From the NCBI GenBank assembly GCA_050123235.1, contig JASFHL010000001.1:84651-148650 (forward strand): DNA of 64,000 bases, written 5' to 3'. The position numbers and the translations under genes are program-made. The notes below the pieces were generated by a model. The model worked only from the letters and a program-made list of their open reading frames with translations. It was not told where the DNA came from and made no database searches. This stretch comes from Candidatus Woesebacteria bacterium. Its GTDB lineage: Bacteria > Patescibacteriota > Microgenomatia > UBA1400 > PJMF01. Positions 3,273 through 59,779 of this stretch are shown one piece after another. Numbering within the stretch: position 1 is the first letter of the stretch; every line of letters starts with the position of its first letter.

Positions 3273-4177
3273 TTTTTCTTTACTCTGCCTCTCAAACTTA
3301 CGCTAGCACTGGCAATACTTTTACCAGTATCGCTTTCATAAGGATAAACAATGATCATGGCTGATTCTTCTTTACTCATTTCAGCCAAATTTTGGATTTC
3401 TCTAAGCCTGAAACCTCCTTCTTGTTTGGCTAAAATTTGGCTGGCTTCAGTCATTTTCTTAGCAACCGCAACTTCTGCTTCTGCTTGGATCTGTTTAGCT
3501 TCAGAGGCTCTTCTAGCACGAGCAATGACTGCTAATTCTTCGACCAACTCCGGTGGAGTGTCAATATCTGTAATGCGCACAGCTCTAACATTCACTCCAT
3601 AATTTACAGCTTGACTGTCAATCTGTTGTTTAAGTTGGCTTGCAATTTCATCACGATTACTGAGTAAGTCTTTTAGATCCATACTACCGATAGTATTTTT
3701 TAAAGCTTCAGTTGATAACCAGATAATGGAACTAAGGTAATTTTTGACATTAATGACTGCTTTTTGGGGATTTTCAACTTCAAACTCAATGGCTGCTGTT
3801 ACTCTAGTAGGAACATTGTCCTTGGTTAAAGTAGCAGTAGCTTCCACTTGCTGAGTAACGATTCTGGTATCAACAATATCAGCTACAGAATAAATAAAAG
3901 GGGGAATGAGAAAATAGCCTGGACCTTTGACACCAGCAAATTTACCCATTTTAAGTAAGACTAATCTTTCCCATTCTGGCAGTACATAGAACATTTTGGA
4001 AATTGTGAGAGCAAGCCAGATATCAACTCCTAGAAAAGCAAAAGTCACTAAAGAACCAGCTTCAGCAATGGAGATCAAGGCAGCTATTGGTAGAGAAACG
4101 AGAACTAAAATTCCTAAGACAACTAGGAAAATAGCAGTTCTGATAAAGGTTTGGACTGAGTTGGTGTTTCTTGGCAT
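3269..4177 (-). CDS. SPFH/band-7 (stomatin/prohibitin-like) membrane protein
   Basis: N-terminal TM then band-7 core, followed by A/E/K-rich coiled coil typical of HflK/C-stomatin family. Confidence 0.75.
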   Translation of the reverse strand: MPRNTNSVQTFIRTAIFLVVLGILVLVSLPIAALISIAEAGSLVTFAFLGVDIWLALTISKMFYVLPEWERLVLLKMGKFAGVKGPGYFLIPPFIYSVADIVDTRIVTQQVEATATLTKDNVPTRVTAAIEFEVENPQKAVINVKNYLSSIIWLSTEALKNTIGSMDLKDLLSNRDEIASQLKQQIDSQAVNYGVNVRAVRITDIDTPPELVEELAVIARARRASEAKQIQAEAEVAVAKKMTEASQILAKQEGGFRLREIQNLAEMSKEESAMIIVYPYESDTGKSIASASVSLRGRVKKK

Positions 4178-9928: not shown

Positions 9929-11821
9929 ATGCAAAAAGTTTCATTTTTAAAACTGAGTTTCTTGGCAGTCTTTATTTGTAGTTTCTTTTTTTTGCTGCTA
10001 ATTCGTTTATTTGATCTGCAGATTATTAGAGGTGAGCATTTTTACAAATTAGCTAATGAAAATCGTTTTTTTGAATTACCCATTGCTGCTCATCGTGGTA
10101 TTTTTTTGGATCGTTATGGGAAACCCTTAGTGCTTAATAAAAAGAGATATTTTAAACTTGAAGACGCTCAGTCACTTTTTTCTGCCAAACAGCCTTTAGA
10201 AAGAGAAGAAGCATTATTAAATATGGCTAATGATAGTGCTTCCGTCAGCTATGAATTGTATCGAGATTATCTTTTTCCCCAAAGTATGGCTCATGTTTTA
10301 GGTTTTACAGCCAAAGTAAGTACTGATGATTTGCTAGCAGACGACTATTTATTGATCAGTGATTCAATCGGCAAATCAGCTTTGGAAAGAAAATATGAAC
10401 GGCCTTTAAGAGGAGTGAGAGGCAAAGAGCTTTTTGAAATCAATACTTTAGGTCAGAAAGAAAGACTTTTGGAAAAAACAGAGGCAGTTACTGGGCAAAA
10501 CATTGAAACGACTTTAGATCCATACTTATCTGAAATTAGTTTCAAAGCTTTAGGACAAGAAAAAGGGGCGATTTTGATAGCTGATGCTAAAACTAATGAA
10601 GTTTTAGTTCTGGTTAGTAACCCAAGTTTTGATCTTAATGATTTTAGTCAAAATTTTTTTGATGAGGTAGAGGAGGCTCAACGAAAAACTAGAATAGAGG
10701 CATATTTTGCTGACGAAAATCAAGTTTTTTTTAATCGAGCTGTGGGAGCTGCTTATCCACCAGGCTCTGTTTTTAAATTAGTGACAGCCATTGCAGGTCT
10801 AGAAACAGGATCGATCGATCAAGGCACAGCAGTGGTTGATGAAGGAATACTTAAAGTTGGTGATTGGGAGTATGCCAATTGGTATTACACCCAGTATGGT
10901 CGGACAGAAGGTTCCATCTCTTTAATTAGGGCGATTTCCAGGAGTAATGACATCTTTTTTTATAAAACAGCTGAATGGGTTGGGCCAGACAAGCTAGCTG
11001 CTTTTGCTAGAGATTTTGGTTTTGGTCAAAAAACTGGTATTGAGTTGGGTTCTGAGGCTAATGGCTTAGTGCCTGATCCAGCTTGGAAGGAGGAGGTAAT
11101 TGGTGAACGATGGTATCTAGGTAATACTTATCATTTTGGCATTGGGCAGGGCGATCTTTTAGTCAGTCCAGTGCAAATTTTACAAATGGTTCAGACTTTT
11201 GCTAATAAAGGTACACTTTGTCGTCCGACTTTGTTGAAGAATCAAGCAGAGCGTTGTAGTGGTTTAAGTTTGAAAAGAGAAAATTTGGATTTAGTTTTGA
11301 AGGGAATGCTCAATGCTTGTAGCTCCGGAGGGACTGCTTTTCCTTTTTTTAAATTTAATCAAAAAAAACGAGCTCAAACTGAAGAAGGAGCAACAGCACT
11401 TGACCCTTTTCAAGAAATTAATAATGGAGCAATTGCTTGTAAAACAGGCACAGCTGAATTTGGAGCTGCTGATGCTAGAGGTTATAGAAAAACTCATGCT
11501 TGGTTTGTGGCCATAGTGGGAGTAGGGGAGCTGAAAGAAGAAGCAGAAAAATTGACTGAAGAGCAAACTCTTAGTGAATCGAGCATAGAAGAAGTAAGCA
11601 GCAGCGCTGAAAGCATTGTGGCGGCTTTAATGGGAAAAAAGATTTTTGATAAAGAAAAACGCGCTAAGTGGTTGGCTCAGCTTAAGGAACATGCTTTTCC
11701 AGATACTTTAGTGATTGTGGCATTAATAGAAAGTAATGATGATAATCCTTATAAAGAAGGATCCCAGGATGCGGCCCCAGTGGTTAAAGAGATTTTGGAT
11801 TGGATTTTTGGAGGAGAGTAA
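9929..11821 (+). CDS. mrdA: penicillin-binding protein 2 (peptidoglycan D,D-transpeptidase)
   Basis: N-terminal TM anchor; transpeptidase motifs GSVFK (SxxK), SRSND (SxN), KTGTA (KTG); operon with mreBCD. Confidence 0.85.
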   Translation: MQKVSFLKLSFLAVFICSFFFLLLIRLFDLQIIRGEHFYKLANENRFFELPIAAHRGIFLDRYGKPLVLNKKRYFKLEDAQSLFSAKQPLEREEALLNMANDSASVSYELYRDYLFPQSMAHVLGFTAKVSTDDLLADDYLLISDSIGKSALERKYERPLRGVRGKELFEINTLGQKERLLEKTEAVTGQNIETTLDPYLSEISFKALGQEKGAILIADAKTNEVLVLVSNPSFDLNDFSQNFFDEVEEAQRKTRIEAYFADENQVFFNRAVGAAYPPGSVFKLVTAIAGLETGSIDQGTAVVDEGILKVGDWEYANWYYTQYGRTEGSISLIRAISRSNDIFFYKTAEWVGPDKLAAFARDFGFGQKTGIELGSEANGLVPDPAWKEEVIGERWYLGNTYHFGIGQGDLLVSPVQILQMVQTFANKGTLCRPTLLKNQAERCSGLSLKRENLDLVLKGMLNACSSGGTAFPFFKFNQKKRAQTEEGATALDPFQEINNGAIACKTGTAEFGAADARGYRKTHAWFVAIVGVGELKEEAEKLTEEQTLSESSIEEVSSSAESIVAALMGKKIFDKEKRAKWLAQLKEHAFPDTLVIVALIESNDDNPYKEGSQDAAPVVKEILDWIFGGE

Positions 11822-13712
11822 TGATTTGTTCTACAGTAGGGCTTTGCCTAATTTTTTCATCTCTTGCTAGCCAATTCCTAATATTAGCTAAATGTTTCCA
11901 ATTTGGTCTACTCCAATAAGGAAAAGTAAATAATTGTTTTTTTTCTTTAGGTTTGACTAATTTTTCAAATTGTTCTTCTTCTTTTGTTGCTGATCTTGGT
12001 TTTTCTTTTGCTGCTAGACTTTTTTTTATTCGTTGCAAAAGAGCCAGTGCTATACGTTCTGGATCAGAAAAGTTAAATGGATCCAACAAGTCTGTATCTT
12101 GGCTTGCCTTTTTCCTCTTTTTTTTAGTTTCTCTCATAAGATCATCAATTCTGTAGAATGTTCCCTGTTGAGCTTCACTTACTGCCGAGCTAAGCTCTAG
12201 CATATGCTTTATGCGACGACGGATCTCTCCAAGTTCTTCTGGTGGAAGAACTCTTGTCTTTAAAAGATTATCCATTAGCTGACTTAACGTTCTTTGCCAA
12301 GGTCTTTGACAATTTTTTAGTTTTTGTGTCAATTTGTGATTAGGGGGTACGATAGGAATAGCATCAAAACAAAAACAAATTTGTTCAGTTTTTGAATTAT
12401 ACATCATGTCTATGGCTAGACTAATAACTCCAGTCTGTTTTATCAATTGTTCGATTTTTGTTAAAAAGTTACCTCCATCTGCCATTGTTGAATTCATTAA
12501 GTTGTAAAATAGGACGCAAGATTGATGGTCAGCAAAAATTAAGGGGTGCTGATCTTCTAGTTGCTTAATCGTCACTCGAAAATTCTGTTCATTTTGGTCT
12601 CTAGAAGTAAAAATATTTAGCATGGCTTCAAAACTTACTCTTGGAGTAAGTTCGCTAGTACTTCTTACCGGTCCTAACTCAAGGATCAATGTAGCCATAG
12701 AATCAAATTCATTTGCAGCACCTTTACTCCCATCTTGAGGAAATACTTTGCAGAAACTTGCTGGTTCTCTAAGTTGCGCAGCAGTTAATCTAGGTAGAAC
12801 TTCAAAGAAAAAATGCGATAGAGTAGTGATTCGTTTATAGAGAGAAGGAGAAGGAGTTTCTGCTACAGTGGTGAATAGATTTTGTTTTTGTAATTGGCTT
12901 AGTTCTTGATTTAGTTCTTGAATTAAGGAAGGTAAAGCTGGTAATTGATACATAGGGGCATTATCATTCTTTTTTACTCCTGCATAACTAATATCATTTA
13001 ATCCAGTAGTAGAAATCCAGACATTTCGTTCTTGCTCTATTAGTGAAACAACCCGGTCAGCTAAAGAAATAATATCCCAAAGAGGATAGGCTCTGGTATC
13101 AGGATCTGCCAAATTTGCTTGATGTAAAGCATGTAGTATTTGTATTTTATAAGGAAAGGTGCCTGAAAGTAGATGACTATCAAGTTGTGCAGCTGCCCCA
13201 GCTGTTTTTTTTAAATAAGCCATATTTTCTGCTTGTGAAGAGCTAGCTGGATGCAATGGACTTGATTCATCTAAAAGTTTAGCTACAGTGAGACCGTAGG
13301 CTAGTGAAGTACATTGCTGAAATTCCACTTGCTCAGGAGATATTTTTAGTCTATCCTTTATTCTGTCCTCTTGGAAAAGATCAAAACTAAAGTTACTGGC
13401 AAATTGAATAACACATTCTATTTGTTCTGTAGTCATTTCTTGGACCAGAGCAATAAAAGTAGGATATCTCTCAGCGAAATTTTCACAGAATTCGTCTGGG
13501 TTTTCTAGATATTGTAGAAAGAAGTCAAGACCTTCGCTTAAATTTGCAGGTAAGAGATTTTGTGATGATTCAAGGTTTATTGCGGCGATTGTTAGTGACT
13601 CAATTTCTCGGTCAGGAAGGGAAGAATATCCATCACCTCTGCCATTGCCATCTTCAGGTGTTGCAACAACGATGCCGTCGTCAGTTCTTGGTCTTTCTTT
13701 AGTATCGACCAT
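11784..13712 (-). CDS. large hypothetical protein (642 aa), no recognisable domain, no signal peptide
   Basis: Long uninterrupted ORF; 3' end overlaps convergent PBP2 gene by 38 bp; followed upstream by about 850 bp AT-rich non-coding region. Confidence 0.4.
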   Translation of the reverse strand: MVDTKERPRTDDGIVVATPEDGNGRGDGYSSLPDREIESLTIAAINLESSQNLLPANLSEGLDFFLQYLENPDEFCENFAERYPTFIALVQEMTTEQIECVIQFASNFSFDLFQEDRIKDRLKISPEQVEFQQCTSLAYGLTVAKLLDESSPLHPASSSQAENMAYLKKTAGAAAQLDSHLLSGTFPYKIQILHALHQANLADPDTRAYPLWDIISLADRVVSLIEQERNVWISTTGLNDISYAGVKKNDNAPMYQLPALPSLIQELNQELSQLQKQNLFTTVAETPSPSLYKRITTLSHFFFEVLPRLTAAQLREPASFCKVFPQDGSKGAANEFDSMATLILELGPVRSTSELTPRVSFEAMLNIFTSRDQNEQNFRVTIKQLEDQHPLIFADHQSCVLFYNLMNSTMADGGNFLTKIEQLIKQTGVISLAIDMMYNSKTEQICFCFDAIPIVPPNHKLTQKLKNCQRPWQRTLSQLMDNLLKTRVLPPEELGEIRRRIKHMLELSSAVSEAQQGTFYRIDDLMRETKKKRKKASQDTDLLDPFNFSDPERIALALLQRIKKSLAAKEKPRSATKEEEQFEKLVKPKEKKQLFTFPYWSRPNWKHLANIRNWLARDEKIRQSPTVEQIITLLQKSNPKSL

Positions 13713-14192
13713 TTTTAGGCTTAATTATATTTTCTAATAAACTTGCTGCGAAATAAAGCCTCAATTTAGATTAAAAAATGTTTTATCTTGTAGCGAGTTT
13801 AAAATTTTTTAAGTTATTAGTTTAGATTTTTTATATTTTTGATATGTAAATAATTAAATTAATCTGTTTATAATATTTTTAAAACACACAAGCGTGTATT
13901 ATAGCATAAAGGAGAAAGGAAGGGATTCTAGGCAAGCTTAATATATAAAGTTAATTCTTTTGAGATTAAAATTGTGAGGAAGTGCTAGTTAAAAAATAAA
14001 AAAAAATAAGGAATTTGTTTAGTCATCTCTATATTGAATTGGAACCTCATTTTCTTCGTCATATCTACCTGTTTCTGGATTAAATCTTAAAATTCCTGTC
14101 AATAAAAATATTAATTTATTATAACGTATGTAGTTAATAGGTATTAAAAATAAGTTCATTTTTCAGCTTTTTACTAGATTTGAAAAAAATAA

Positions 14193-14220
14193 TGGGGGAA
14201 TGTAATTCACCCCTTTAGTT
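14193..14220 (-). terminator. intrinsic terminator (GGGGTGAAT..ATTCCCCC hairpin + U-run) for the small minus-strand ORF
   Basis: Inverted repeat tgggggaatgtaattcacccc followed on the minus strand by a run of Ts. Confidence 0.4.
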
Positions 14221-14434
14221 TATCAGCATCAGCTGCTACGGAGCCACATTCCACTAATCTGCCTTTTCCTTTGGGACTAGGTTGCCAATTGTAACATAGT
14301 CTTGTATCTACAATTTGTATGTCACCTCCAGGTAATGTAGCTGTCATTTGATATTCCTGTGGTATTTGGCTAAGAGGTGTTCTTTGTTCCCTGAGATAAT
14401 AATGCGGTTCTTTTCGACGTTTTCTCTCTGACAT
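14207..14434 (-). CDS. hypothetical small basic protein
   Basis: 75-aa ORF in an otherwise non-coding AT-rich region, own terminator; no motif. Confidence 0.25.
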   Translation of the reverse strand: MSERKRRKEPHYYLREQRTPLSQIPQEYQMTATLPGGDIQIVDTRLCYNWQPSPKGKGRLVECGSVAADADKLKG

Positions 14435-14563: not shown

Positions 14564-15835
14564 ATGCTCAGTATAGAAAAACAAAATTGGTTGGCACTTT
14601 TGTCAATTAATGGCATTGGTAAAAAAACATTTTTTAATTGCTACAATGCCCTAATAAAACACCAAATATCTTGGGAAGAGTTTTGGGTAGGGAGGAATTC
14701 CATCTGGCAACATTGCTCACTAAATGAAAAGCAGCAAAAATCAATTAAAAAGTTTAAAAAAGAACATAGCATTTCTTCATATTATCAAAGTCTTTTGGAA
14801 AAGAAGATTTCGGTTTTAACTTATAAAGACGCGAGCTATCCTAGTTTGCTCCAACAAATAGATGATAAACCAGTGCTTTTATTTATCAAAACTAAGACAA
14901 ATAATTTTTTAACAAAGACAAAAAATAACTCAACAGCTTATTATTGGGATCAATTGCCAGTTGCAATTGTGGGTAGTCGTAAGATAACTGTCTATGGCCG
15001 GCAGGTAACGGAGAAAATCAGCAAAGAGCTAGCTTTACTAGGAGCCACTATTATTTCTGGTTTTATGTATGGTGTAGACTTGCTTGCTCAAAAAACTGCT
15101 TTTAAATGGTCTAGGAGGACAGTTGGTATTTTAGGTTTTGGTTTTGATTATATGTATCCTCGCTCTCAAAAAAGGCTTTTTGAGCAAATGCTTGAACAAG
15201 GAGCGATTTTTGTCACTGAATATGCGCCACATGTGAGACCTAAGTTTGGTCAGTTTCCAGTACGTAATCGCATTATTGCTGGCATGTCTTTAGCCACGTT
15301 GGTGACTGAAGCTGCACTCAAAAGTGGTAGTTTGATCACAGTTCAAGCTGCTTTGGATTATGGCAGAGATGTTTTCACTGTGCCTGGTCCAATCACTAGC
15401 CCTTATAGCGAAGGTACAAAGAAATTAATCAATGATGGGGCAACGCTTATTAGCAGCGGAAAAGAGCTGATCAAAGAACTAAGCAGTGTTTATTTTTTTG
15501 ATCGTTATCAAAGGCGATTGGCTGATTTTACTTTAAAAAGTGTAAAGAAAAACCAGGCTAAAAAAGTAAGCTTTGTTTCCAAGGATGCTGCGATAGATTT
15601 TTCTAAAATAAAACACTCACAGATGAGAATGATTCAGGCTGGCCATAAAAATAAAATCAAATCTCAAAAGCAATTGGAAAAAGATATTTTACTGAGTCTA
15701 AAAACTAGAGTTTTGAATACTGATGATTTAGCTAAATTGTTTGAGATAAAAGTTGCTAAATTAAATATAGTTTTAACTTTCTTAGAGTTGAGAGGCTTGA
15801 TTGAAAAAACGGCTGAAGGGTGGGTGCGGCGGTGA
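14564..15835 (+). CDS. dprA: DNA processing protein DprA (Smf)
   Basis: Rossmann-like DprA core: VAIVGSRKITVYGRQV, VTEAALKSGSLITVQAALDYGRDVF, PGPITSP; C-terminal winged-helix-like extension. Confidence 0.85.
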   Translation: MLSIEKQNWLALLSINGIGKKTFFNCYNALIKHQISWEEFWVGRNSIWQHCSLNEKQQKSIKKFKKEHSISSYYQSLLEKKISVLTYKDASYPSLLQQIDDKPVLLFIKTKTNNFLTKTKNNSTAYYWDQLPVAIVGSRKITVYGRQVTEKISKELALLGATIISGFMYGVDLLAQKTAFKWSRRTVGILGFGFDYMYPRSQKRLFEQMLEQGAIFVTEYAPHVRPKFGQFPVRNRIIAGMSLATLVTEAALKSGSLITVQAALDYGRDVFTVPGPITSPYSEGTKKLINDGATLISSGKELIKELSSVYFFDRYQRRLADFTLKSVKKNQAKKVSFVSKDAAIDFSKIKHSQMRMIQAGHKNKIKSQKQLEKDILLSLKTRVLNTDDLAKLFEIKVAKLNIVLTFLELRGLIEKTAEGWVRR

Positions 15836-15864
15836 TGCTCTGATTTTTTAAAAAAAAGAAAGGA

Positions 15865-15899
15865 GTGCCTCCTCCTTTCGGATAGCCCAGGAGGCACTA
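15865..15899. terminator. bidirectional hairpin terminator between dprA and the GC-rich small ORF
   Basis: Perfect 9-bp inverted repeat AGTGCCTCC / GGAGGCACT with 17-nt loop; T-runs on both sides. Confidence 0.5.
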
Positions 15900-16142
15900 G
15901 AATAGCAGTTTTTTTAGGATGCCTGCTAGCATCCCTATCGCCAATCCGTAGATTGGCGCGGTGGGTGTGATACGGTCTGAGTGCCTGAGATAAACCCAAG
16001 CAACCAGATCTACTCCTAGCCACAGGGCTATTGCGGCTAGGAGAATCCAAGGCAACACCCCGTTCAAGAACAGAGCAATGCCTATCCCCACCATCAGGCC
16101 AAGTAAAAACTTGGCCAATTTTAGAAAAAATTCGAAGGCCAT
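15897..16142 (-). CDS. small (81 aa) membrane protein encoded in a GC-rich islet
   Basis: Three predicted TM helices; strong RBS (AGAGGAGG) 7 nt upstream of ATG; local GC about 50% versus about 34% for flanks. Confidence 0.4.
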   Translation of the reverse strand: MAFEFFLKLAKFLLGLMVGIGIALFLNGVLPWILLAAIALWLGVDLVAWVYLRHSDRITPTAPIYGLAIGMLAGILKKLLF

Positions 16143-16422
16143 TTTGCCTCCTCTTTTTTTGGAACGGTGCTCGTGTCAGGGTCGCCTTTGACCCTTCACA
16201 AACACCAGGCGGTTTTTAAGGATTATATGATACATTATTTTTTTTAGCATACGTATATTTTATGTAATGAGTTAGTATTTTATTAAAAATTAAAAACTAT
16301 TCTGCATAATTTTCCATTTGTTTTAAATTATTTGCTAAGATATATTTAGACGTGTTGCTAAATCAGAGATATTGATTTTTTTTATTTAGCGACTAAATTA
16401 TTAAAATTAATTTTTTAAAATT

Positions 16423-18600
16423 ATGAATTTAGTCATTGTTGAATCACCAACTAAAGCTCGTAAGCTCAGTGCTTATTTGGGAAAAGATTTTAAAATCGAA
16501 GCTTCAGTAGGGCATGTGCGAGATTTGCCCAAAAAAAAACTAGGCATCGATCTTGAAAAAGATTTTGCTTTGACTTATGAAGTTGACGAAGAAAAGACTA
16601 AAGTAGTCAAGCATCTGCAAACTTTAGCCAAAAAAGCAAATAAAGTCTATTTGGCCATGGATCCTGACAGAGAAGGTGAGGCTATAGCTTGGCATATACG
16701 ATATCTTTTAAAGGAGGCTCAAAAAAAGCAAAAAACTAAAGTGAAAGCTGAGTTTCTACGTTCAACTTTTCATGAAATTACAAAACGAGCAGTTTTAAAG
16801 GCAATTGATAAGCCGGGTAAAATTAGGATGGATTTAGTGGATGCTCAACAGGCTAGGCGAGTAGTTGATCGTTTGGTGGGTTATAAAGTTTCGCCAGTTT
16901 TGTGGAAAAAAGTGAGAAGAGGCTTATCTGCTGGCAGAGTTCAATCTGTGGCACTGAGATTAATTGTTGAACGGGAAAGAGAAATCAAAGCTTTTAAAGC
17001 TAAAGAATATTGGGAGATCGATGTAGCTCTGTCAGTAGCTGAAGCTGAGAAATCAGAAATTTTTAAAGAAGGAAAGGCCGTCGAAAATTTACCACAAGAT
17101 GTGCTGATTGTTTCTTTAGATAAAATTAAAGGTAAGAAATTTGGTGATCCTGTTTTTACTGAAAAGCACGCTAAACCAGTGGTCAAAGATTTGAAAACAG
17201 CCAAGTATTTAGTGCAAGACGTCGAACGAAAAGAAAGAGTTAGAAACAGCTTGCCGCCTTTTACCACTTCACTTTTGCAACAAAATGCTGCTAGCAAGTT
17301 TGGCTTTTCTGCCAGGCAAACCATGCGTTTGGCTCAGCAACTTTATGAAGAAGGTCTGATTACTTATCATCGTACTGATTCTTTTAATTTGTCCCAGTCG
17401 GCTATCAAAATGGCAAGAGATTTTATTCAAGATCAATATGGTAGTCAATATCTGCCATCTGCTCCAAGAATTTTCAAAAGTCGTTCCAAAAGCGCCCAGG
17501 AAGCTCACGAAGCCATTAGGGTAACTAAAGTTAGTTTATTGACCGATGAGATTAGAACTAAATCAAAAAAATTCACAGAACGTCATCTTAAACTCTATGC
17601 TTTAATTTGGCGACGTTTTTTAGCTAGCCAGATGAAAGCTGCCATTTATGATCAAACTACGATTTTAGTTGAGGCCTGGCCAAAGGGTAGCAAAGTTGGG
17701 TCTAGCAAAACTGTGCCCTACTTATTGAAAGCCACTGGCTCAATCATGAAGTTTGATGGTTGGACTAAGTTATTTAAAAACCCCGGTGATAAAACTTTGC
17801 CGGCTTGTGAAGTAGGTCAGGATTTGAATTATCTAGACATTAATCCTTTACAAAAATATACTCAGCCACCTGCTAGGTACAACGATGCTTCGCTTGTCAA
17901 AGAATTAGAAAAAAGAGGCATTGGTAGACCAAGCACTTATGCCAGCATCATTTCAGTTATTCAAGATAGAGCCTATGTTGAAAAAACAGAAAAGAAGTTC
18001 TTTGCTACGTCAGTAGGAATCACAGTTTCTGATTTTTTACTCAAAAATTTTTCAGACATCATGGATTATGATTTTACTGCTGAAATGGAGGAGGATTTAG
18101 ATCGCATAGCCAGGGGTGAAAAAGAGTGGAAAAATATTGTTAAAATTTTTTGGCGGCCTTTAGCAAAAATTATTCATCAAGTAGTGGAGAAAGCTGCTAG
18201 AGTTCAGATCCCAGTAGAAAAAACTGGAAAACCCTGTCCTGACTGCGGTAAAACTGACAAAGGTGAGATAGTAATCCGTACGGGTCGTTTTGGTAAATTT
18301 AAGAGTTGTAGTCGTTATCCAGATTGTAAGTACAGCGAGAACCTGGTTGAAAAACTCGAAGGTATGACTTGCCCTTTATGTAAAAAAGGGGAAGTTATTG
18401 TTAAGAAAACTCGTTGGGGAAAGCCTTTTTATGGTTGTAGTCGTTATCCAGATTGTGATTGGGCTAGTTGGAAAAAGCCAGAAAAAGGAGAAACTATTAC
18501 TCAAAGAAAATGGGAAGAAATTAAAAGAGCACGTCAAGAAAGAGCAGCCAAAAGAAAAGGAAAAAAAGGAAAATGGGCAAAAAGAAAGAAGAAAAAATAG
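16423..18600 (+). CDS. topA: DNA topoisomerase I with C-terminal zinc-ribbon repeats and lysine-rich tail
   Basis: TOPRIM N-terminus MNLVIVESPTKARKL, catalytic Tyr region LITYHRTDS, repeated CPDCG...CSRYPDC zinc fingers. Confidence 0.95.
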   Translation: MNLVIVESPTKARKLSAYLGKDFKIEASVGHVRDLPKKKLGIDLEKDFALTYEVDEEKTKVVKHLQTLAKKANKVYLAMDPDREGEAIAWHIRYLLKEAQKKQKTKVKAEFLRSTFHEITKRAVLKAIDKPGKIRMDLVDAQQARRVVDRLVGYKVSPVLWKKVRRGLSAGRVQSVALRLIVEREREIKAFKAKEYWEIDVALSVAEAEKSEIFKEGKAVENLPQDVLIVSLDKIKGKKFGDPVFTEKHAKPVVKDLKTAKYLVQDVERKERVRNSLPPFTTSLLQQNAASKFGFSARQTMRLAQQLYEEGLITYHRTDSFNLSQSAIKMARDFIQDQYGSQYLPSAPRIFKSRSKSAQEAHEAIRVTKVSLLTDEIRTKSKKFTERHLKLYALIWRRFLASQMKAAIYDQTTILVEAWPKGSKVGSSKTVPYLLKATGSIMKFDGWTKLFKNPGDKTLPACEVGQDLNYLDINPLQKYTQPPARYNDASLVKELEKRGIGRPSTYASIISVIQDRAYVEKTEKKFFATSVGITVSDFLLKNFSDIMDYDFTAEMEEDLDRIARGEKEWKNIVKIFWRPLAKIIHQVVEKAARVQIPVEKTGKPCPDCGKTDKGEIVIRTGRFGKFKSCSRYPDCKYSENLVEKLEGMTCPLCKKGEVIVKKTRWGKPFYGCSRYPDCDWASWKKPEKGETITQRKWEEIKRARQERAAKRKGKKGKWAKRKKKK

Positions 18601-21735: not shown

Positions 21736-21742
21736 TAGTTTT

Positions 21743-21988
21743 TATTGATGCATATTTTTTTAGAGTTATTGAGATGCTTAGAACAATTAATATCTATAAA
21801 TCTGGAGCGTTGAAGCGAGGCCTGGTTAGGCTTGAGTTAGCAATCAATATATTACCGAGCTTCACCTAGTGAGCCTTGTATCTTATAAAAAAAATATAAT
21901 AGCGAGCGTGTCCAAGATTTATAGATATTAATGTTCTAAACACTAGATTTTTTTAAAACAGACTATTAAGATATCTTATGCATCAATA
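21743..21988. repeat. about 246-bp imperfect-palindromic intergenic element, copy A (core GGAGCGTTGAAGCGAGGCCTGG ... TACCGAGCTTCACCTAGTGAGCC)
   Basis: Terminal inverted repeats of about 65 bp (ttattgatgcat...gcttagaacaattaatatctataaatctgga at left, its reverse complement at right); core shared with copies at 29351-29554 and 47045-47175. Confidence 0.6.
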
Positions 21989-21995
21989 ATCAACT

Positions 21996-51136: not shown

Positions 51137-51209
51137 AAGTTCCTTTTTCGCAATAATTTTATTATACGTTACAGTTTATGTAACTGTTAGCGTTTATTAT
51201 TCAAAATGT

Positions 51210-51276
51210 GGGGGCGTGTTGGTCAGTAATGGATCCGTCAAATCTAATTACAGGGGTTCGAATCCCCTCGCCTCCA
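51210..51276 (+). ncRNA. tRNA-like element lacking a D arm (possible tRNA pseudogene or tRNA-mimic ncRNA); anticodon-position triplet GUC
   Basis: 7-bp acceptor stem GGGGGCG/CGCCUCC, canonical T arm AGGGG-UUCGAAU-CCCCU, 9-bp extended anticodon-like stem with 7-nt loop CCGUCAA, followed by ACA and T7; antisense to flanking his genes. Confidence 0.4.
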
Positions 51277-51370
51277 CATTTTTTTGCTGTTGATTTTGCT
51301 TTAATTATTTGTTAAATTATTTTTAATTGACGGATCTATTACTGCAAGATTTAAAACTCCTGTAGTTAGA

Positions 51371-51399
51371 GAAAAATCGCTCGTAAGAGTGATTTTTTG
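51371..51399. terminator. bidirectional hairpin terminator at 3' end of his operon
   Basis: AATCGCTC-gtaa-GAGTGATT flanked by A6 (left) and T6 (right). Confidence 0.5.
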
Positions 51400-51432
51400 C
51401 TTTATAAGCTAAGTTTCAACATAACCGTTAGC

Positions 51433-58270: not shown

Positions 58271-58384
58271 ATAGCATTTTGCAGAATTAAATTCTACGGT
58301 TTTGAATAATTTTTAAGACTTTAGCAACGCCGAGGCGATTTTTTGTTGCCAGGCTAAGCCAAGTTCTAAATTTTCTAATTTTTG

Positions 58385-58459
58385 GGTGACTGACGGGATT
58401 CGCACCCGCGGCCTTCGCTTTCACAGAGCGACGCTCTAACTAACTGAGCTACAGCCACC
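58385..58459 (-). tRNA. tRNA-His (anticodon GTG) with genome-encoded G-1
   Basis: Cloverleaf: G-1 + GTGGCTG acceptor, D arm GCTC/GAGC, anticodon stem TCGCT/AGCGA with loop CTGTGAA, T arm GCGGG-TGCGAAT-CCCGT, C73 discriminator; CCA not encoded. Confidence 0.85.
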
Positions 58460-58582
58460 ATCTTTAATTTTTACTAGGGTTTGATTTTCAGATTTCCTTA
58501 AATCTCTAAACCCTATCAGATGTTTTAAATAAGCAGTTTCCAATTTTTTAATTTTGTGCGGCTCGTTTATATTAATAATAAG

Positions 58583-58607
58583 CACAAAAAACCCCCCGGC
58601 TGGGGGG
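58583..58607 (-). terminator. strong intrinsic terminator T2 (CCCCCC-AGCC-GGGGGG + U6) in his leader region
   Basis: Perfect 6-bp all-GC stem followed by U-run on the minus strand. Confidence 0.6.
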
Positions 58608-58626
58608 AGTGAAAAGTGTTTATTTA

Positions 58627-58655
58627 ACTAAAAAATCCGGCTTTGGGTCCGGATT
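58627..58655 (-). terminator. intrinsic terminator-like hairpin T1 (AAUCCGG-ACCCAAAG-CCGGAUU + U6) downstream of leader ORF
   Basis: 7-bp inverted repeat followed by U6 on the minus strand. Confidence 0.5.
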
Positions 58656-58684
58656 AATTTCACACAAAAATCACTAACCCCCTT

Positions 58685-58720
58685 TTAGGTGGTATGGTGA
58701 TGATGAGCTAATTGACTCAT
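58685..58720 (-). CDS. putative his operon leader peptide MSQLAHHHHTT (4 consecutive His codons)
   Basis: ATG AGT CAA TTA GCT CAT CAT CAC CAT ACC ACC TAA; lies between a consensus promoter and tandem terminators upstream of tRNA-His/hisG. Confidence 0.55.
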   Translation of the reverse strand: MSQLAHHHHTT

Positions 58721-58743
58721 GTTTTGTGTTTTCATAAATGATT

Positions 58744-58772
58744 ATTATATATAAGTTTTGTTGTGTGTCAAC
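58744..58772 (-). promoter_or_regulatory. sigma-70-like promoter TTGACA-N17-TATAAT driving the his leader
   Basis: Minus-strand TTGACA (58772-58767) and TATAAT (58749-58744), about 24 nt upstream of leader ATG. Confidence 0.5.
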
Positions 58773-58786
58773 TTTTAGCGACTTTT

Positions 58787-59779
58787 CTACAAAGCCAATT
58801 TTTTCCCATCAATCTTGATTATTGGCTTCAATGTTAGAGCATCTAAATGGATTGGCACATCAACTTCACCACCAATACAACTACTATTTCCAAAAGCAAT
58901 ATGAGCAGTTTTTAAAGCCTTTTCAGCTTCGATCATTTTGCCTAAAGGATTAGTCTTGGGGTTGGTACCAATCCCGATCTCAGCAATGTTAAACGCATCT
59001 GGGCCGATTTTTTTGAGTTTCTCTTCTAAGGCCTGAGCAAGTTGATGATTGTTTGACTCGCTTTCAAATTTGACAGCTAAGCCATTTTTAATAGTCACCT
59101 TGATTGGTTTTTTGAGTTTAAAATCAGCTAAAGCGCCATTGATTATCCAAGTTCCTTGAGAGCTGCCTTTAATTGGGGCAAAGAAAACTTCACCTGCGGG
59201 AAGATTACCAAGTTCGCCATTTTTTAGAATTCCGCCATCATTGAAAATAGCTTTTTGGCGAATAGCTGCACTGAAGTTTGTCTCTGATGGAGAACTAATA
59301 TGAATAGTGTTTGCTTTTTGGAGTTTGGCTTTTATTTCCTCGCCTAGTTTTTTAATTTTATGATAGTCAGTTGTCAGAGTGCGACGCATGATTTTGTAAT
59401 TAACTCCTGGCAAACTAGCACCACGATGATTGTTTCTTACCACTGCTTTGCCAGCTTTGCTGTGGGTAAGGGAGAATTTTGTATGGAGGATCGTAATGTT
59501 TGCCTGCGCGCAAGCCTGAACTACCTCATCAGGTGGTTCTTGGCCACTGTGAGTCATACCAGCCAAGACTATCATCTGCACTTTATCAGTGAGGGTTTTG
59601 GCAGTCTCGAACCAAATGGCAGCCTCTTTTTTATAAAATCTGATGTCTGTGACAATTAGGACATTATCATTCTTTTGGAAATTAAGGTTATTTTTGAGAA
59701 TTTTTTGACCTAATCTTAATTCTGCTGTTTGTAAGCGCAGCAAACTTTGATCAGCTGAAATTATTTTGTGAATTTTCAT
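58787..59779 (-). CDS. aminopeptidase, M29 (AmpS/PepS, thermophilic metalloprotease) family
   Basis: about 330 aa; overall pattern of M29 family including metal-ligand-containing regions (HTKFSLTH, IAEIGIGTN, HIAFG); assignment by similarity of pattern only. Confidence 0.55.
   Translation of the reverse strand: MKIHKIISADQSLLRLQTAELRLGQKILKNNLNFQKNDNVLIVTDIRFYKKEAAIWFETAKTLTDKVQMIVLAGMTHSGQEPPDEVVQACAQANITILHTKFSLTHSKAGKAVVRNNHRGASLPGVNYKIMRRTLTTDYHKIKKLGEEIKAKLQKANTIHISSPSETNFSAAIRQKAIFNDGGILKNGELGNLPAGEVFFAPIKGSSQGTWIINGALADFKLKKPIKVTIKNGLAVKFESESNNHQLAQALEEKLKKIGPDAFNIAEIGIGTNPKTNPLGKMIEAEKALKTAHIAFGNSSCIGGEVDVPIHLDALTLKPIIKIDGKKLAL

Follow-up and report, generated by a model that had tools for sequence, protein, structure and literature searches.

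A GC-rich, highly structured islet beside dprA in a Patescibacteria genome: a candidate masked mRNA for a small three-helix membrane protein

The DNA analysed in this study (referred to here as the window) is a stretch of 64,000 nucleotides from a member of the Patescibacteria. Within the window, the genes of DprA (dprA; PF02481, E = 4e-65), on the left, and topoisomerase I (topA; PF01131, E = 4e-123), on the right, flank a GC-rich islet (15836..16225), which has the dprA stop codon (15833-15835) on one side and the ancestral dprA-topA spacer on the other. The islet has the layout of one inserted minus-strand transcription unit, consisting of a TATAAT box, a leader of about 73 nt, an open reading frame (ORF) of 81 codons and an intrinsic terminator, with a predicted RNA of about 365 nt. 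The GC content of positions 15836-16220 was 48.3%, against 35.3% for the whole window (sd 3.9% in 385-nt windows). With a peak of 50.4%, the islet was the sole region of the 64 kb to reach at least 46% GC at the 385-nt scale, and an earlier note on this DNA, which had described a GC-rich islet of about 380 bp in an otherwise AT-rich genome, had thus picked out the GC maximum of the window.

Comparison of the locus with related genomes, as recommended in that note, showed that the relatives keep the dprA-topA gene pair and lack the islet. Their spacers ranged from 11 to 474 bp and were AT-rich, unstructured and without an islet homolog, and no comparable GC islet was present at their dprA-topA loci. 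In L081, the closest relative, the spacer measures 203 bp and aligned with the right-hand part of the spacer analysed here (approximately 16225-16422). The islet is therefore a lineage-specific insertion beside the dprA stop codon. No similar DNA was found using blastn and nhmmer in 160 fetched loci, no islet homolog was found by DNA searches of phage and plasmid collections, and a protein-pattern scan of viral contigs gave no match. Of the two origins suggested previously, an acquired or a conserved element, acquisition stands in the form of a lineage-specific insertion, while conservation was not borne out, as nothing similar occurs in the collections searched. A further relative, L011, carries an unrelated inserted ORF in the same dprA-topA spacer. 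A possible 7-bp direct repeat, TTTTTAA, was observed at both borders of the islet, although such a repeat is weak evidence in AT-rich DNA.

On the minus strand, a promoter-like site (16222..16250) is made up of a -35-like ATGCTA (16250..16245), a 17-nt spacer and a perfect -10 box, TATAAT (16227..16222), and was recognised by its match to the consensus at 9 of 12 positions. The -10 box, previously described as TATAAT-like, predicts a transcription start near 16215, so that the 5' leader (16143..16215, minus strand), delimited by this box and the ORF start, would measure about 73 nt; the leader sequence quoted earlier was correct, and the length given for it, about 60 nt, was too short. A GGGUC/GACCC hairpin had also been noticed in the leader. 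It is real, and constitutes the inner part of a 16-bp hairpin (16166..16206, minus strand) composed of 10 bp with two G-U pairs, an internal loop and 6 bp of the GGGUC type, with the loop AAAGGC and a pair probability of 1.00. The leader alone was predicted to fold at -31 kcal/mol (z = -4.65), and the same hairpin was weak on the plus strand (z = -1.5). The sequence downstream of it is GUUCCAAAAAAAG, which has no U-run. The Shine-Dalgarno (SD) sequence lies 13 nt downstream of the hairpin and was predicted to pair with coding or 3' sequence and not with the leader.

A GC-rich structured leader ahead of a small multi-helix membrane protein resembles the guanidine-SMR and fluoride-CrcB arrangements, and a riboswitch controlling a small transporter had been proposed on this basis. 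We regard this as extremely improbable. Searching positions 15300-16700 against Rfam with cmscan at E <= 10 gave four noise matches, none of them in the leader, the coding sequence or the minus-strand RNA of the islet, so that the Infernal scan suggested for the leader found no family even at E = 10; that the leader is unlike the guanidine and fluoride consensus sequences, as the note had itself remarked, agrees with the lack of a match to either family. At the gathering threshold, Rfam matched tRNAs only over the window and nothing in the islet, and an ARAGORN tRNA/tmRNA scan likewise found nothing in the islet. The leader consists of one 16-bp rod that lacks a junction or pseudoknot, does not overlap the SD and is not followed by a U-run, and it contains no expression platform, either as a terminator U-run or as an SD-sequestering helix formed by the leader. 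In its aptamer, expression platform and protein family, the islet thus departs from both known systems, since none of the three could be matched. SMR and CrcB proteins have four helices, to which a protein of 81 aa with three helices does not correspond, and the protein fits no transporter family. The RNA structure, moreover, extends over the full length of the coding sequence, for which a riboswitch would have no need.

The coding sequence (15897..16142, minus strand; ORF 16142..15897) encodes a predicted three-helix orphan protein of 81 aa, and the ORF looks coding. T was found at 51% of second codon positions, compared with 21% of first and 17% of third positions. The grand average of hydropathy (GRAVY) was 1.39, against -0.10 +/- 0.33 for ORFs of shuffled sequences, and was reached by none of 940 shuffled ORFs; an ORF of at least 81 codons arose in 2.2% of shuffles. 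In the AlphaFold model (pLDDT 81), helices were predicted at residues 2-25, 29-53 and 61-79, in agreement with the 81-aa minus-strand protein with three transmembrane segments described before. An SD-like sequence, GAGGAGGCA (16145..16153, minus strand; GGAGG at 16151..16147), is located 4 nt before the ATG; no SD match elsewhere in the window is as strong. The GAGGAGG at this spacing accounts for the consensus ribosome binding site reported in the note. SD-like motifs were, however, found upstream of only 9 of the 40 genes in the window, against a background of 11-12%, and the anti-SD motif is missing in about half of Parcubacteria (PMC9297842). Use of SD sequences in this host is therefore doubtful, and GGAGG may not act as an SD here.

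The protein had no relatives in any of the searches performed. A word-indexed search of 5.8 billion clusters returned the protein itself only, a full phmmer search of 1.84 billion representative proteins found no relative besides the protein itself, and its sequence cluster contains no other member. Searches of Pfam, PHROGs, NCBIfam and PADLOC gave nothing above noise (best Pfam E > 1), and when the AlphaFold model was compared with PDB and BFVD by Foldseek, no match had E < 3. The family search proposed earlier for this protein accordingly ended with no Pfam family and no match to SMR or CrcB. Two candidates were considered and rejected. BicA (NCBIfam), which scored 18.8 bits where the cut-off is 880, was dismissed as hydrophobic bias. 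The mercury transporter MerF (phmmer against PDB, E = 0.06, 17 bits) is expected to have two vicinal cysteine pairs, and was rejected because the ORF contains no cysteine.

At the 3' end of the unit, an intrinsic terminator (15850..15898, minus strand) can fold in two alternative ways, with a stem of 10 bp (15898-15889 with 15873-15864) or of 8 bp (15879-15872 with 15865-15858), and ends in U8 (15857-15850). The 10-bp stem is the perfect inverted repeat AGTGCCTCCT/AGGAGGCACT (15864-15873 / 15889-15898), which overlaps the 8-bp hairpin at 15858-15879, and the 3' arm of the terminator repeats the SD sequence. A perfect 9-bp bidirectional terminator had been claimed at this site. The perfect stem is present, with 10 bp and not 9. 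Bidirectionality was not supported, since the scan gave minus-strand sites only and the stem runs straight into a U-run on the minus strand alone (U8, 15857..15850); no plus-strand terminator was found in the scan, and the nearest T-run on that strand (T7) begins 10 nt past the stem.

The minus-strand RNA of the islet showed a strong excess of predicted structure. Its minimum free energy (MFE) was -169 kcal/mol, against -119 +/- 4.9 for dinucleotide shuffles (z = -10.1), and the plus strand gave z = -4.75. Three perfect hairpins of at least 8 bp were present in the 390 nt of the islet, where 0.043 were expected, and of all 200-nt minus-strand windows in the 64 kb, the five with the most structure after correction for GC lay inside the islet. 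These values strongly support the structured RNA suspected previously, and the predicted structure extends beyond the leader to span the whole coding sequence. From its 5' end, the coding sequence contains a perfect 8-bp hairpin, GGCCAAGU/ACUUGGCC (16097..16116, P = 0.99), and then a 6-bp helix, GGUGGG/CCCACC (16092-16087 with 15965-15960, P = 1.00), which delimits the segment 15960..16092. This helix encloses a hairpin of 5 + 9 bp with four G-U pairs (16050..16083, P = 0.92-0.95), a 12-bp hairpin, CUCCUAGCCGCA/UGUGGCUAGGAG, with one G-U pair (16013..16043, P = 0.99), which was also detected as an inverted repeat, and a hairpin of 5 + 8 bp with three G-U pairs (15976..16008, P = 0.81-0.99). 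A second perfect 8-bp hairpin, CGCCAAUC/GAUUGGCG (15939..15958, P = 0.99), follows within the coding sequence, and then an 8-bp hairpin, GGGAUGCU/GGCAUCCU (15916..15935, P = 0.96), which forms on the minus-strand RNA only because of its two G-U pairs. All of these are minus-strand features, and G-U pairs are a recurrent component of the minus-strand stems. Perfect or near-perfect hairpins thereby take up almost the full length of the predicted RNA. The hairpins GGCCAAGU/ACUUGGCC and CGCCAAUC/GAUUGGCG share a GCCAA...UUGGC core, placed in different codon phases. A tandem or repeated-unit origin of the hairpins was not indicated, as TRF found nothing and no repeat family was present in the window.

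For the coding sequence alone, folding was compared with synonymous-codon shuffles, which leave both the encoded protein and the codon set of the ORF unchanged. The native sequence folded at -110.3 kcal/mol, against -76.6 +/- 5.0 for the shuffles. The resulting z of -6.7 indicates that structure has been selected independently of the protein, and on these folding predictions RNA structure is under selection in addition to the protein, largely at synonymous sites. The base composition of the stems carries no such information. The GC content of paired and unpaired positions (58.5% and 32.8%) had been considered as a sign that the GC sits in stems and that structure explains it, and this argument was abandoned since dinucleotide shuffles gave the same excess at paired positions (58.0% and 35.2%).

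A lineage-specific insertion of approximately 370-385 bp, rich in hairpins, with a possible direct repeat at both borders and in a spacer that has received an unrelated ORF in L011, might be a non-autonomous mobile element of MITE-like, palindrome-rich type, in which the hairpins act at the DNA level and the ORF is a passenger or fortuitous. The structure itself argues otherwise, as many of the stems need G-U pairs and the minus-strand RNA folds far better than the plus strand. In addition, no terminal inverted repeats are present, the islet is in single copy in the 64 kb with no copy in the collections searched, and a 7-bp repeat of A and T counts for little in DNA of this composition. We consider a mobile element of this kind very improbable.

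The extreme and strand-specific folding would equally be expected of a structured minus-strand RNA of about 365 nt, either non-coding or with a dual function, in which the ORF is fortuitous or secondary and GGAGG/CCUCC is structural or target-binding. RNAIII of Staphylococcus aureus is such a case, being a multi-hairpin RNA of a few hundred nt that encodes delta-haemolysin (hld), a small hydrophobic peptide. The islet shares this general build, although two-thirds of its RNA is taken up by the ORF and neither regulatory partners nor target-binding loops, nor any sign of a trans-acting role, could be recognised. In AT-rich genomes, structured RNAs classically stand out as GC-rich intergenic islets, a signature on which the GC-IGR approach of the Breaker laboratory is based (PMC6429828). 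Like the candidates of that approach, the islet is a long, GC-rich intergenic region of an AT-rich genome with strong predicted structure in excess of controls; unlike them, it has a clear coding signal, no homologs from which a consensus structure could be derived and no match to an Rfam family. Short ORFs are also recovered among the candidates of the GC-IGR pipeline (PMC6429828). The absence of homologs of the putative protein, the weak or doubtful use of SD sequences by the host and the hairpin core shared across codon phases would all suit an RNA gene. Structure does not, however, predict the three-base periodicity or a hydropathy above that of every shuffled ORF, and the ORF exactly fills the space from the leader hairpin to the terminator, begins with an ATG at a well-spaced SD and yields three clean predicted helices. 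A non-coding or dual-function RNA therefore appears rather unlikely.

The codon usage of the ORF bears on its origin. Given the protein sequence and the codon usage of the genome, a GC content of 39.3 +/- 1.8% was expected for the ORF and 49.0% was observed; GC at third codon positions (GC3) was 55.6%, against 27.8 +/- 4.2% for 40 genes of the window. The earlier note had allowed that the amino acids of a membrane protein might fully explain the high GC. From these two differences, amino-acid content does not account for the GC of the islet. The comparison of codon usage suggested in the note gave a synonymous-codon log-likelihood of -1.54, against -0.98 +/- 0.06 for the genome's genes, so that the atypical composition it had described extends to both GC3 and codon choice. 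An ordinary, recently acquired gene for a small membrane protein would fit these values, with its GC, codons and SD derived from an SD-using donor of higher GC and with hairpins that are non-regulatory or serve general mRNA stability. The SD is the strongest of the window, in a genome with scarcely any use of SD sequences (PMC9297842), the insertion is clean relative to L081 with a possible TTTTTAA repeat at its borders, and pairing of the SD is easily reached at this composition. Composition cannot, however, yield the folding, which exceeds both the dinucleotide and the synonymous-codon shuffles, nor three perfect hairpins where 0.043 were expected; and no homolog in a donor was found among the 1.84 billion representatives or the 5.8 billion clusters. 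We consider an ordinary acquired gene to be unlikely.

The position of the SD within the predicted fold was analysed in the full-length RNA and in nascent RNAs. The probability that the SD is unpaired was at most 0.01 in all nascent RNAs of at least 85 nt, as it was at full length. An anti-SD segment across the stop codon (15889..15906, minus strand), consisting of GCUAUU (15906-15901) and UGCCUCCU (15896-15889), can pair with AAUGGC and AGGAGGCA of the translation start region. This long-range pairing was present in the MFE fold with a probability of approximately 0.37, and a complement to the start region of at least 8 nt arose in 2% of shuffled 3' ends. When the coding sequence was shuffled synonymously, the SD remained predominantly paired in 45% of the prefixes of 300 nt and in 84% of the full-length RNAs. 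The predicted masking of the SD is thus weakly specific, and it was downgraded as a strong argument since the shuffled controls obtain the pairing easily.

Taken together, we propose, with a probability of roughly 0.45, that the islet specifies a stable, translationally masked mRNA with the build of a type I toxin message, encoding a three-helix membrane protein. [quoted passage not shown] By analogy, the 5' hairpin and compact fold of the islet RNA would protect the message from RNases and make it long-lived. During transcription, the SD would first pair locally with codons 2-3 to form a hairpin (GGAGGC/GCCUUC). After synthesis of the 3' end, it could be held instead by the anti-SD past the stop codon (AGGAGGCA/UGCCUCCU, together with AAUGGC/GCUAUU), and the anti-SD might alternatively pair with the SD look-alike in the terminator. 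The protein would then be a membrane-active, toxin-like peptide, and an antisense RNA could be supplied either by read-through from dprA to topA or by a promoter that has escaped recognition.

The hok/Sok system of Escherichia coli plasmid R1 and aapA/IsoA of Helicobacter pylori are the closest points of comparison for such a masked message. In common with these, the islet encodes a small hydrophobic membrane protein in a stand-alone, lineage-specific intergenic unit, and its mRNA is highly structured, with predicted trapping of the SD first locally and then over a long distance by the 3' end. It differs in that its hairpins fill the entire coding sequence, whereas theirs are found mainly in the untranslated regions, and in having an 81-aa product with three helices, no paralogs or homologs and no antisense RNA gene that could be found. 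Type I toxins are typically below 60 aa with one transmembrane helix; at 81 aa and three predicted helices the islet protein falls outside this range, although its hydrophobicity fits. The search for an antitoxin RNA gene yielded no convincing antisense promoter, no plus-strand terminator and no complementary repeat in the flanks, and the only plus-strand promoter-like site (GAGAAT, 16041-16046) was weak, with 8 of 12 matches. The islet is oriented antisense within the conserved transcription unit of dprA and topA, and read-through of this housekeeping operon might supply antisense RNA. The stronger proposal sees in the islet an unusually built type I toxin-antitoxin-like module, the first in Patescibacteria, with a three-helix toxin, a hairpin-locked coding sequence, an SD masked co-transcriptionally and then by the 3' anti-SD, and antisense RNA supplied by dprA-topA read-through; we regard it as decidedly doubtful at present, and a new dual-function structured RNA would be a rarer alternative.

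For screens of such genomes, the islet is a caution that GC-rich islets in AT-rich DNA do not always represent non-coding RNA, and that orphan small ORFs are not invariably annotation noise. Its value now is that of a candidate, from one sequence without relatives, for transcriptomic and probing work, and not that of a settled discovery. We know of no structure-gated toxin-like genes in Patescibacteria, and a literature search surfaced none either. If the masked-message reading is true, such genes would be extended to a phylum without known cases, the islet would offer a clean natural case of overlapping protein and RNA-structure codes, and a reduced Patescibacteria genome would be seen to carry a mini-gene, selfish or regulatory, that is controlled through the folding of its mRNA, with the structure encoded at synonymous sites along the full ORF.

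The GC-rich islet (about 15836-16225) is located within a 587-bp spacer between dprA (14564-15835) and the topoisomerase I gene topA (16423-18600), both on the plus strand and both identified by Pfam. Nearest matches of the two flanking proteins were in Patescibacteria (CPR) MAGs labelled Paceibacterota, Pacebacteria or Woesebacteria, at 54-69% identity for TopA and at best 52% for DprA. The window as a whole has a GC content of 35.3%. At 15836-16220 it was 48.3%, against a same-scale mean of 35.3% (sd 3.9%), and the islet was the only place in 64 kb to reach 46% at that scale (peak 50.4%), in agreement with the earlier note. When the 81 residues of its minus-strand ORF (16142..15897) were re-encoded to match codon usage in 40 long window genes, the expected GC was 39.3 ± 1.8%, compared with 49.0% observed. 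Likewise, GC3 was 55.6% against 33.1 ± 4.8% expected (27.8 ± 4.2% on average for the genome's genes). The synonymous log-likelihood per codon was -1.54, lower than in any of the 40 genes (minimum -1.20), and the leader was also 50% GC. Therefore, the amino-acid content of a membrane protein does not account for the islet GC, and the suspicion of atypical composition was correct. Foreign origin and structural selection are both possible sources of the excess and are not mutually exclusive. The GC contrast between paired (58.5%) and unpaired (32.8%) bases in the native RNA is not used as evidence that stems create the islet, since shuffled sequences matched it (58.0% and 35.2%).

Comparison with related genomes showed that the dprA-topA gene order is kept, with AT-rich spacers of 11-474 bp that are not unusually structured, and no homolog of the islet or its ORF was found at these loci. 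The spacer of the closest relative (203 bp) aligned patchily to 16225-16422, which together with the other spacers indicates that this lineage carries about 370-385 additional bp beside the dprA stop codon; by this sequence comparison, the islet is an insertion. A 7-mer, TTTTTAA, recurs at the two borders (15845-15851 and 16213-16219); in DNA so rich in A and T it argues only weakly for a target-site duplication. In another relative, the 474-bp spacer (3527-4000 of that locus) carries an unrelated 132-aa plus-strand ORF (MSTNKSMERIIYPRLSYKVVG...), so this spacer seems to accept insertions repeatedly. Upstream of dprA, minus-strand ORFs of 642 aa (11784-13712) and 75 aa (14207-14434), neither with a Pfam or PADLOC match, are separated by a very AT-rich gap (13700-14200, 20-28% GC), and 11784-14434 may be another variable region.

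The 81-aa ORF was present as described, with GAGGAGG before its ATG, and it takes up the whole stretch from the leader hairpin to the terminator. An ORF of at least 81 codons arose in 2.2% of dinucleotide shuffles. The GRAVY of its product was 1.39, compared with -0.10 ± 0.33 for shuffled ORFs of at least 50 aa, 0/940 of which reached that value. AlphaFold without an alignment predicted three helices (2-25, 29-53 and 61-79; mean pLDDT 81). T occupied 51% of second codon positions, 21% of first and 17% of third, a periodicity not predicted by RNA structure and hence one that a purely structured RNA leaves unexplained. The ORF is probably a real gene, but its lack of relatives and the weak SD usage of this genome are serious caveats. 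A search of 5.8 billion clusters, and HMMER reading 1.84 billion representatives in full, retrieved only the protein itself; Pfam, PHROGs, NCBIfam and PADLOC gave no family match, and Foldseek of the predicted structure against PDB and BFVD gave no fold match.

A perfect TATAAT (16227..16222, minus strand), preceded at 17 nt by ATGCTA, is the predicted -10 box, so transcription probably starts near 16215. The leader would thus be 73 nt, longer than the roughly 60 nt first proposed. Its quoted sequence and GGGUC/GACCC stem were both present. It is predicted to fold as a single 16-bp rod (16206-16166, minus strand; -31 kcal/mol, z = -4.65), with no U-run after it and no SD overlap; it lacks both an expression platform and the multi-helix shape of an aptamer. 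At gathering thresholds, Rfam returned three tRNAs and nothing else across the window. When 15300-16700 was scanned permissively (E ≤ 10), four noise matches appeared, none in the leader, and ARAGORN detected no tRNA or tmRNA in the islet. With a protein that matches no family, the suggestion of a riboswitch-controlled transporter (guanidine/SMR or fluoride/CrcB) is not supported. At the 3' end, a perfect inverted repeat of 10 bp rather than 9 bp (15864-15873/15889-15898), overlapping an 8-bp hairpin (15858-15879), is a minus-strand terminator; the U-run directly follows the stem on the minus strand only, and the element is not demonstrably bidirectional.

The minus-strand RNA is strongly structured beyond chance. 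Over 390 nt its MFE was -169 kcal/mol, compared with -119 ± 4.9 in dinucleotide shuffles (z = -10.1); the plus strand gave z = -4.75. With MFE regressed on GC across the window, the top five structured 200-nt minus-strand windows of the 64 kb all lay in the islet. Three perfect Watson-Crick hairpins of at least 8 bp were found against 0.043 expected, together with one 12-bp hairpin, and several others require G-U pairs and so form on the minus-strand RNA only. The earlier alternative of horizontal acquisition or a conserved structured RNA stands as to structure and lineage-specific presence, but not conservation. One rival reading, an ordinary transferred gene whose structure is incidental or merely stabilising, would suit an extra segment of atypical composition. 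Synonymous shuffling that kept protein, codon set and GC, however, gave -76.6 ± 5.0 kcal/mol against -110.3 for the native coding region (z = -6.7), indicating that structure is encoded in synonymous choices and is no by-product of protein or composition; 44/81 base pairs inside the coding region involve a wobble position. These values also suit the other rival, a structured or dual-function RNA.

Elsewhere in the window, the most structured 200-nt plus-strand stretch was at 21741-21990 (z = -4.2), which ranked high on the minus strand too (z = -3.4). This is AT-rich intergenic DNA containing a long, imperfect inverted repeat (ttattgatgcat...atgcatcaataa; gcttagaacaattaatatctataaatctgg...ccaagatttatagatattaatgttctaaac) and no Rfam match at gathering threshold. 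The second, 51151-51400 (plus strand), includes a weak Rfam tRNA call (51210-51276, 36 bits) absent from the ARAGORN output. The stretch 58551-58750, between tRNA-His (58384-58458) and a gene at 58787-59779, was structured on both strands (z = -3.4 and -2.5) and has no Rfam annotation.

The RNA appears built for stability and poor translation. Its 5' hairpin and compact multi-hairpin body would withstand RNases, and folding predictions kept the SD paired (P unpaired at most 0.01) in nascent prefixes of every length from 85 nt up. Its first predicted partner is codons 2-3 (GGAGGC/GCCUUC), with the AUG as part of the loop. In the full-length RNA the SD may switch to an anti-SD segment, UGCCUCCU, just after the stop codon, backed by AAUGGC/GCUAUU, a long-range pairing that would close the whole ORF. 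A 13-nt direct repeat (15866-15878 and 16145-16157, 12/13 identical) places a second copy of the SD region (AAAAGAGGAGGCA, minus strand) within the terminator (AAAGGAGGAGGCA), giving the anti-SD two alternative partners; pairing with this look-alike (GAGGAGGCA) would yield two competing 3' conformations of similar predicted probability. In type I toxin mRNAs, local metastable anti-SD hairpins give way to a 5'-3' long-distance lock (PMC6733600), and the order predicted here is alike.

Several observations led us to hold this reading loosely. Known type I toxins are typically smaller than the 81-aa islet protein. The SD was still paired in many synonymous-shuffle controls, and an 8-nt complement arose in 2% of shuffled 3' ends. 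Promoter and terminator scans of the plus strand revealed no evident antisense RNA gene; no plus-strand terminator was found between dprA and the islet, and in relatives dprA and topA are near-contiguous, so dprA read-through could, speculatively, supply the antisense RNA. SD use in this host is also uncertain. The consensus ribosome binding site noted before the ORF is atypical for this genome, as an SD-like 4-mer at -20..-3 preceded 9/40 long genes against an 11-12% background (approximate, starts being taken as the first ATG) and GGAGG preceded almost none. This weak usage fits reports of many Parcubacteria having no anti-SD motif; a published survey found it in just 48% of Parcubacteria 16S rRNAs (PMC9297842).

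The islet is genuine and stands out statistically. The description that fits best is an orphan gene for a small membrane protein, specific to this lineage, with a hyper-structured mRNA and a dual constraint on protein and RNA structure. Its most likely mechanism, with modest confidence, is a structure-masked message of type I toxin-like kind.
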